A DNA stretch of 64,000 bases from Octopus vulgaris (taxonomy: Eukaryota): contig OX597827.1 in NCBI GenBank assembly GCA_951406725.2, positions 20,646,001 to 20,710,000 of the forward strand, given 5' to 3'. Made by a program: the position numbers and the translations under genes. Below the pieces are notes generated by a model that saw nothing but the letters and a program-made list of their open reading frames with translations, searched no databases and was not told the origin of the DNA. Below, piece by piece: positions 20,052-22,938 of this stretch. Every line of letters starts with the position of its first letter. Position 1 is the first letter of the stretch.

Positions 20052-20525
20052 CTCTTTTACTTGTTTCAGTTGTTTGACTGCGGCCATGCTGGAGCACCGC
20101 CTTTAGTCGAGCAAATCGACCCCAGGGCTTATTCTTTGTAAGCCTAGTACTTATTCTATTGGTCTCTTTTGTCAAATCGCTAAGTTACGGGGACGCAAAC
20201 ATACCAGCATCGGTTGTCAAGTGATGTTGGGGGGACAAACACAGGAACACAGGCATACACACACACATATATATATACACACATACATATATACGACGAG
20301 CTACTTTCAGTGTGTGTGTGTGTTCTTGTGTGTCTGTTTGTACCCACCCAGCATTGCTTGACAACCGATGCTGGTGTGTTTACGTCCCCGCAACTTAGCG
20401 GTTCAGCAAAAGAGACTGATAGAATAAGTACTAGGCTTACAAAGAATAAGTCCTGGGGTCGATTCACTCGACTAAAGGCGGTGCTCCAGCATGGCCACGG
20501 TTAAATGACTGAAACAATTAAAAGG
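20052..20525. mobile_element. Two family B SINE 3' halves in inverted orientation
   Basis: 20052-~20220 is the near-perfect reverse complement of ~20358-20522. Confidence 0.85.
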
Positions 20526-20895: not shown

Positions 20896-21418
20896 CTGCA
20901 ATGAGAAAACAGAGAAAAGGTGTAAGTTGGAGAGAGAGAGAGAGCAAGATAGAGAGAGAGCGAGAGAGAGAGAGAGCGAGAGAGAGAGAGAGATGGTAAA
21001 AGAAATCAAATAAACCCAACAAGAAATTACACACACACACACATGATAACATATGATTAATACCACTGACCAGCATCTTGGCCATTTATTTTTTTTCTTT
21101 CTTTAGCCTCCAGTTGACCAACAGTCTGTGTATGGTATTTGATATCAGAAATGTGTGTGTGTGTGGTCATCCCTCAGAGTTGAAGATGATTGTTCATCAG
21201 GTTTAACTTCTCTTGCACCTATATAGCACAGACCAATGTAAGATCCACAAGTCTAGTGCTGGATCAGGTATTTGTTGTCTGTGAGGTTCCTTCATATTGC
21301 TTTCTACACAAACATTTATCAGTGAACCTTTGGGTTTGTTGACCTCCATCACAAACACTTCACCTACACTAGTTTTGGTTATTCTCAATTGTGGGAAACA
21401 CTGAGGATACAATTTTAT

Positions 21419-21807
21419 TATGGGACTGTCACATTGAGTTGACAGTATATGACCACTATATCGCTCCACCACCGCTCATGTCTCTCTGAGACATTTAGAA
21501 ATTCAATATTTCTCATTTTGGTGATCAGTAAATAAATTTTACTGAAAATAGCATATATTTGCGAAGGGGTTGCAGTCATCTCAGCGAGCGAGACAGGCTA
21601 CCCTGAACTGACGACGAGCAATAGACTCAGAAACATATGTCTTCAGGTGCTTAGTCCCAGCTGGCAGGGGTGATTGCCTCCCCATTGCAAATATAAGGAC
21701 ACAGAAAATGTGTCAAAGCCGACAGGAGATGTTTCCTAGGGCTAAATGGCGGTGTTGTAATTCCCTTACTGGACTGTCATATTGAGCTGACAGTATGCGA
21801 CCACTAT
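21419..21807 (+). mobile_element. Retrozyme-like / Penelope-related non-autonomous retroelement (348-nt monomer plus ~38-bp terminal redundancy)
   Basis: Direct repeat GGACTGTCA(C/T)ATTGAG(T/C)TGACAGTAT..GACCACTATA at 21423 and 21771. Central hammerhead. Flanking ACTGAGGATACA(A/G)TTT(T/C)AT duplication at 21400-21418 and 21808-21826 splits an RTE fragment. Confidence 0.7.
21602..21647 (+). ncRNA. Type I (minimal) hammerhead ribozyme
   Basis: Stem I CCTGAA(21602-07)/TTCAGG(21642-47) is a perfect 6 bp. Core CTGACGA, stem II C-GAG-caataga-CTC-A (imperfect first pair), GAAA, palindromic stem III CATATG, cleavage triplet GTC (after 21641). Confidence 0.75.
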
Positions 21808-22146
21808 ACTGAGGATACAGTTTCATAAGTTACCTTCAAGTATGTCTTTACACTATTTTCTCTGTCCTCTTGATTTGGCTTTTATTCAAACTGATATTGT
21901 GGAAATGATGCCTTCGTAACATGAGATATTCTTTCCTCTATTCTGTCACTGAATGGATGTGATTTTTCTCAGACATCTCTGCTGATATATTCCCAGTTTA
22001 TGGAGATGTTGTCTAGACCTTGTCCAAATTTCAAAACCATGAATGAGGACACAGCAGTAACTCTATACACCACACACTTAGTTGTATCATGTCATCATTT
22101 TTATACATCATTTTATGCACCCATCTTCTTGGAAATATATATTGAT

Positions 22147-22661: not shown

Positions 22662-22938
22662 TGGTGTGCAAGGTGACACGTAAAAAACAAACAAAAAAAC
22701 ATGATTTTTTCATGACTGTTGCCAGTACCGCCTGACTGACCCTCGTGCCGGTGGCACGTAAAAGCACCCACTACACTTTCGGAGTGGTTGGCGTTAGGAA
22801 GGGCATCCAGCCATAGAAACTCTGCCAGATCATGATTGGAGCCTGGTGCAGCCATCTGGTTCGCCAGTCCTCAGTCAAATCGTCCAACCCATGCTAGCAT
22901 GGAAAGCGGATGTTAAACGATGATGATGATGATGATGA
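22662..22938 (+). mobile_element. SINE-like family A
   Basis: Same body and tail. Confidence 0.85.

Follow-up and report, generated by a model that had tools for sequence, protein, structure and literature searches.

The locus raises the question of what the small hammerhead-bearing insertion at 21400..21826 is a copy of, and what enzyme placed it there. The window, i.e. the whole 64,000-nt stretch of Octopus vulgaris DNA analysed here, holds this element as one dispersed copy of a small non-coding repeat with hundreds of family members. We read the family, at a probability of about 0.7, as a non-LTR retrozyme, a 5'-truncated ~354-nt hammerhead repeat inserted by a Penelope-like (PLE) RT-endonuclease, probably around a circular RNA. 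The passages of PMC7229834 and 10.64898/2026.07.22.740005 on animal retrozymes already propose a link with PLEs and state as open which enzyme moves them.

The window copy and its family

The window copy and its surroundings comprise the following features.

21400..21418, plus strand: left TSD, 19 nt, 17/19 identical to 21808-21826; its final base doubles as the element start
21419..21807, plus strand: retrozyme insertion of ~1.1 units, 5'-truncated at family position ~350, with its 3' end at the first fixed site, family position 38-39
21418..21460, plus strand: upstream copy of the terminal redundancy, 37/43 identical to 21766-21808
21461..21516, plus strand: optional 55-nt tail between the family's two fixed 3' ends (39 and ~94), in this copy only within the first unit
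21578..21610, plus strand: site where relatives carry an ORF1-only cassette, just 5' of the hammerhead core; empty in the window copy
21602..21647, plus strand: type I hammerhead, predicted from sequence, covariation over 20 motifs and fold energies; predicted cut at 21641/21642
21766..21808, plus strand: downstream copy of the terminal redundancy, 37/43 identical to 21418-21460, ending at the presumed reverse-transcription start site
21808..21826, plus strand: right TSD, 17/19 identical to 21400-21418
21928..22047, minus strand: decayed C-terminal piece of a LINE RT ORF in the host flank (tblastn E 1.6e-8, 42% over 40 aa against RT ORFs of the same genome)

The direct repeat that the first-pass annotation took for a TSD is indeed there, and from this duplication we call it a putative TSD. 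It is the clearest non-simple-repeat TSD candidate among the 90 non-inverted insertions of the family. The reported terminal repeat is likewise in place (21423-21460 and 21771-21808, 34/38 identical, spacing 348) and grows from 38 to 43 nt upon alignment to the family. The 348-nt monomer holds as the spacing within this copy but not as the family unit, which is ~354 nt, the window copy having a private 6-bp deletion near 21727. No frame longer than 60 codons lies inside the element, in line with the claimed lack of coding capacity. As to the proposed splitting of an old RTE fragment, the right flank is a minus-strand C-terminal remnant of an RT ORF, which by its motif we take to be RTE-type, and the left flank has a 47-nt match to a relative.

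Two older remnants of related retrozyme subfamilies lie elsewhere in the window, at 5029-4900 and 11085-10915, both on the minus strand. They have in common a conserved block before the 3' end, and the one at 11085-10915 ends in a TA run. The flanking region also contains, at 20400-20520 and 22730-22900, what are presumably abundant octopus SINE-like repeats.

A genome search with the element brought up 2638 first-look candidates; 40 of them were scored, and the full-length family matches are 88-94% identical. The family unit is 354 nt with a GC content of 44% and is non-coding. Exact 23-mers from the hammerhead and from the 3' end occur 97 and 142 times, respectively, and their reversed controls 0 times. 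With the subfamily diverging from its majority sequence by ~4.4%, these exact counts suggest roughly 300-400 copies of the window subfamily. Hence the multi-copy non-coding retroelement with more-than-unit copies, as first proposed, is borne out as a family of hundreds.

For mapping, 170 loci (30 best matches, 60 pattern loci and 80 further pattern matches) were reduced to 147 distinct rows, a few of which stand for the two ends of a single composite insertion (L073/L102 and L081/L082). The copies are dispersed and span 0.1-2.1 units, the longest direct tandem being ~2.1 units (L005). Around the 97 exact hammerhead matches there are two direct dimers and no long array, where diverged arrays could escape exact matching.

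At the level of sequence, the family is a non-LTR retrozyme as described in the relevant passages of PMC7229834. It shares with the metazoan ones (Mytilus, 350-390 nt; axolotl Rtz_353) a type I hammerhead with a short palindromic stem III, a non-coding unit of 150-450 nt with GC below 50%, a strongly self-paired circle as predicted here, and a TSD of more than 4 bp when present, 19 nt in the window copy. It differs in its dispersed copies of 0.1-2.1 units, where non-LTR retrozymes come as tandem dimers to multimers, and in a stem II closed by C.A or U-A. Moreover, circular RNA and cleavage are demonstrated in those passages, whereas for the octopus family both are predicted. In the literature searched we found no description of a cephalopod retrozyme, which agrees with the earlier suggestion of an uncharacterised cephalopod family, although a repeat-library entry may exist.

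Insertion ends and the mobilising enzyme

On the hammerhead strand, the 3' ends of 66 of the 147 rows lie at positions 35-40 and of 64 at 90-97, with 17 elsewhere, so that 130/147 insertions end at two fixed points 55 nt apart. The same holds for a subset selected by the hammerhead and blind to the end, where 49/59 end at the two sites. The 5' ends are scattered among the 147 rows. An inverted upstream piece is present in 57/147; in 44 of these 57 its outer end, too, falls at one of the two fixed sites. As to the targets, 80/147 insertions run into a TA repeat, and a non-simple TSD candidate of variable length is found in 17 of the 90 non-inverted insertions.

These ends bear on three points of the first-pass annotation. 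Circular permutation with variable start points is contradicted by the two fixed 3' sites, and the end mapping rules out random permutation. Fixed ends at both sides, as in an ordinary LTR element or TRIM, are not found either: only the 3' ends are fixed, and the variable 5' ends, the variable TSDs and the type I motif exclude an LTR retrozyme or TRIM, for which a short TSD of constant length and a type III hammerhead would be expected. Target-primed insertion agrees with the fixed 3' ends, the variable 5' ends and the TSD of the window copy. The copies are not freely permuted, and so the 38-43 nt redundancy of the window copy reflects priming at a fixed Penelope-type site together with a 5' end truncated shortly beyond one unit.

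Such ends are familiar from PLEs. Section 6 of PMC8557442 lists as their traits partial tandems, inverted 5' copies, an optional tail and a (TA)n bias. In PMC11167929, a purified PLE enzyme cleaves the two strands of an AT-rich target, extends both of them and starts copying at a pair of internal RNA sites on either side of the tail. Compared with these two accounts, the octopus family agrees in its pair of fixed internal 3' ends, in the optional tail and the 5' truncation, in partial tandems and inverted 5' copies, in AT-rich or (TA)n targets and in a type I hammerhead upstream of the end. It differs in that the unit has no RT or endonuclease, the tail is 55 nt instead of 30-40 nt and the unit has no DNA in common with the PLEs sampled.

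We thus infer the enzyme class from the insertion anatomy matching the PLE pattern, and not from a partner sharing DNA. Penelope-type mobilisation of the hammerhead family is, in our judgement, highly probable. The family works like a non-autonomous Penelope element and gives unusually clear genomic evidence for this route, as it shows, copy after copy, the insertion anatomy made in vitro by the only purified Penelope enzyme. In comparison, an ordinary LINE (RTE, CR1 or Tx1) moving a SINE-like element, or a small LTR element (TRIM), is a barely credible source. The clean 19-bp TSD of the window copy is as in LINE insertions, but the ends have no poly(A) or common LINE tail, non-simple TSD candidates are confined to the 17/90, the 5' ends vary, and there are two internal 3' ends with inverted twins whose outer ends both lie at them.

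The Xenopus retrozymes, with monomer, dimer and multimer copies, have been given the same proposed relation to PLEs in 10.64898/2026.07.22.740005, whose species in the passages concerned are vertebrates, insects and a coral. That study, as far as those passages go, argues from co-occurrence and pseudo-LTR homology and leaves the mechanism open, whereas the octopus case is made by insertion anatomy and has no homologous parent.

The Xenopus match between retrozymes and PLE pseudo-LTRs, reported in the same passages, would also fit another source, in that the octopus unit could be the pseudo-LTR of 5'-truncated copies from an unsampled autonomous Penelope element. Our PLE sample leaves some room for such a parent, with 47 loci taken from thousands of candidates and one family dominating them. 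However, these 47 GIY-YIG or PLE-bearing loci gave only chance-level matches of 29 bp or less to the unit, and tblastn of the PLE protein against the fetched retrozyme loci found no PLE ORF directly upstream. In those loci the unit runs back into itself and not into an RT ORF, and upstream of units we found no coding sequence other than an ORF1-only cassette, which brings its own polyadenylation signal and TSD. A pseudo-LTR origin is therefore very improbable.

For the preferred reading, mobilisation by a Penelope-type enzyme acting in trans on a retrozyme RNA, the steps would be these. A rare two-hammerhead copy would be transcribed, cut as a dimer via the palindromic stem III and ligated to a circle. 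An enzyme of Neptune/Nematis type would nick AT-rich DNA and copy the retrozyme RNA, priming at one of the two fixed internal sites and copying back a little over one unit.

A candidate driver exists in the genome, which holds a young intact family with RT and GIY-YIG in 781 aa, TA-run ends and a Neptune/Nematis-type cysteine linker. This family itself carries a minimal hammerhead variant of U3-A8 type, and it has no DNA in common with the retrozyme unit. Its copies at L063-L070 (e.g. G000:C16:20.836-20.840 Mb) have an upstream ~400-aa frame, dozens of copies are intact, and the family is probably active. The presence of a young intact Penelope family in the same genome makes a direct test of the retrozyme driver possible.

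Two further loci place hammerheads near PLEs. At L023:1050-1980 on the minus strand, a 1.2-unit retrozyme is followed by 8 nt of TA and then by a truncated copy of the 781-aa family; co-insertion is possible in this one case, and a shared TA target explains it equally well. At L303:104-137 and 586-619, also on the minus strand, two hammerhead-like motifs 482 nt apart lie near a second PLE family and are unrelated to the unit.

Hammerhead and template RNA

The type I hammerhead has its parts as first annotated. Stem I is formed by 21602-07 and 21642-47, the core by 21608-14 and 21630-33, stem II by 21616-18 and 21626-28 and the palindromic stem III by 21634-39. The base of stem II is closed by a C.A mismatch, which is non-canonical and the same in most family units (C.A in 67/101, U-A in 30/101). 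The proposed check against Rfam hammerhead models gave no match at E<=10, and the 46-nt motif by itself is no more stable than its shuffles (z -0.96), while its 111-nt context is (z -2.7).

Since neither Rfam nor the fold of the motif separates it from chance, support for the hammerhead comes from covariation. In an alignment of 20 motifs taken from several subfamilies, pairing holds in 88.6% of cells and 35 cells have two-sided changes, with 0/500 shuffles as high; these motifs were picked by a core-demanding pattern, and two of the rows are shifted by two columns. In the same alignment, pairs with changes on both sides are no more numerous than in shuffles (236/500). The stems covary: compensatory change preserves them between subfamilies that are no more than 69-82% alike. 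This implies selection on the fold of the ribozyme and upholds the structurally conserved type I hammerhead of the first-pass annotation.

The active fold is weak. It has -3.8 kcal/mol against -7.2 kcal/mol for the best monomer fold, being 3.4 kcal/mol less stable, and self-pairing of the stem III palindrome reaches -7.0. This self-pairing resembles the hammerheads that act as dimers in the pertinent passages of PMC4209133. Any ribozyme activity is probably slow and would depend on dimers or on protein. In the part of 10.64898/2026.07.22.740005 on cleavage assays, 8/9 Xenopus retrozyme dimers showed no cleavage in vitro. With its single hammerhead, the window copy would be unable to release an RNA of unit length and is probably a dead end.

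What RNA is copied can be approached from the 5' ends. Of 54 copies selected by the tail, 2 stop within 6 nt of the predicted cut, 25 fall short of it and 27 cross it; moreover, 4/26 long copies cross two cut sites. The template is thus a circle or an uncut multimer, because the cDNAs run through the predicted cut. No 5' ends pile up at the cut, by which the cleaved linear monomer was rejected as a template.

Repeated stretches differ by 6.2% within an insertion and by 7.6% between insertions among 30 more-than-unit insertions. The duplicated stretches of these insertions have 10 rare non-CpG variants in common, against 1.7 expected (4124 site pairs), as expected if one RNA stretch is copied twice. 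As a circle, the unit has a compact fold (z -6.8). Fixed differences between unit 1 and unit 2, as a single tandem master would leave, do not stand out: the top recurrent ones are CpG sites or occur at most 4 times.

Template switching or recombination also builds tandems, as indicated by subfamily-marker sites that disagree between units of one insertion (9/54, 4 of them in the mosaic L011) and by the loose linkage of these markers (phi ~0.5). Furthermore, read-through needs no circle, because the purified anole PLE prefers uncut RNA and its hammerhead is dispensable in vitro (PMC11167929). The earlier idea of a copy of a circular RNA is thus a plausible reading, but an uncut tandem transcript fits nearly as well.

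In this alternative, the enzyme is still of the Penelope type and copies a linear, uncut transcript from tandem or partial-tandem loci. Tandems would be rebuilt through switching of the template or when a new copy inserts into an old one, and the hammerhead would be slow or serve another role. Uncut RNA as the dominant substrate of the anole PLE, mosaic units such as L011, the weak active fold with its C.A closure and a longest direct tandem of only ~2.1 units all speak for it. Against it, a linear source gives only shorter copies while more-than-unit copies are common (49/128 among copies with a fixed end; the sample was selected partly by length), the repeats within an insertion mostly share rare variants and the stems are kept by compensatory change across the diverged subfamilies. 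We consider the linear template unlikely on balance, and lean to the circle as the main template at somewhat better than even odds.

Sequence databases add little to this choice. Among the sequence sets listed as holding the unit, none is recorded as RNA. Four presumed-RNA contig sets have mostly related subfamilies, and their joints leading back 348 nt also arise from genomic tandems. Reads across 21641/21642, suggested as a mark of the circle, are uninformative because a ligated circle restores the uncut genomic sequence.

ORF1-only cassettes in relatives

Several relatives carry a ~1.65-kb insert, with the unit cut just before the hammerhead core and resuming there after the insert. The cassette encodes one ~460-aa protein with CCHC knuckle, RRM and ZCCHC3-like RNA-binding domains, ends in a polyadenylation signal and has its own TSD. 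Many cassette ORFs are intact. A homolog search restricted to near-length proteins gave one Octopus bimaculoides protein, and no long ORF2-like frame was found as a partner in 32 loci. In one locus (L235), a short stretch just 5' of the cassette appears to resemble the 5' end of U1 snRNA.

For one cassette, the 30 best copies include 19 with a hammerhead core 20-32 nt after the polyadenylation signal, and many copies have TSD candidates of 9-22 nt. In a wider set, 25/60 cassette ends adjoin the core and most others are tandem cassettes or lie at other fixed targets. Cassette similarity between retrozyme subfamilies is 89-96%, against 69-76% for the flanks, and the trees conflict, so insertion was recurrent. 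The head-to-head composites L311 and L312 end at the retrozyme's two fixed sites, which shows that the cassette then travels with the retrozyme.

Target-specific Tx1 elements insert repeatedly at one site, as the cassettes do. The cassettes are likewise comparable to HAL1, the L1 derivatives with ORF1 only (passages of PMC5753468). Unlike both, they target a ribozyme repeat, after which the composite moves by the probable Penelope-type route. No ORF1-only element targeting a retrozyme is described in the literature searched, although a repeat-library entry may exist.

A tentative and rather doubtful extension is that the retrozyme is a vector. A Penelope-driven RNA circle would capture ORF1-only cassettes 5' of the hammerhead and become a ~2-kb protein-coding circle that spreads as a unit, its protein possibly chaperoning the weak dimer ribozyme. 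This is drawn from the 19/30 cassettes adjoining the core, the 89-96% similarity, L311 and L312, the intact ORFs and the arrays at L271 and L272. A ribozyme joined with a Gag-like RNA-binding protein would be a deltavirus-like layout. The cargo-carrying relatives suggest that retrozyme-type RNAs can also carry genes.

Cassettes occur in further arrangements. At L271, L272, L275 and L284-L286, a variant-core subfamily whose second core base is C alternates with ORF1 cassettes, with one hammerhead per ~2-kb unit. L273, L274, L278, L280-L282 and L287 (e.g. G000:C4:70.04-70.05 Mb) hold very young cassettes with intact 457-aa frames, in head-to-tail arrays at a different fixed target, an AT-rich repeat that they share. 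The cassettes at L270, L283 and L288-L290 lie at a third target.
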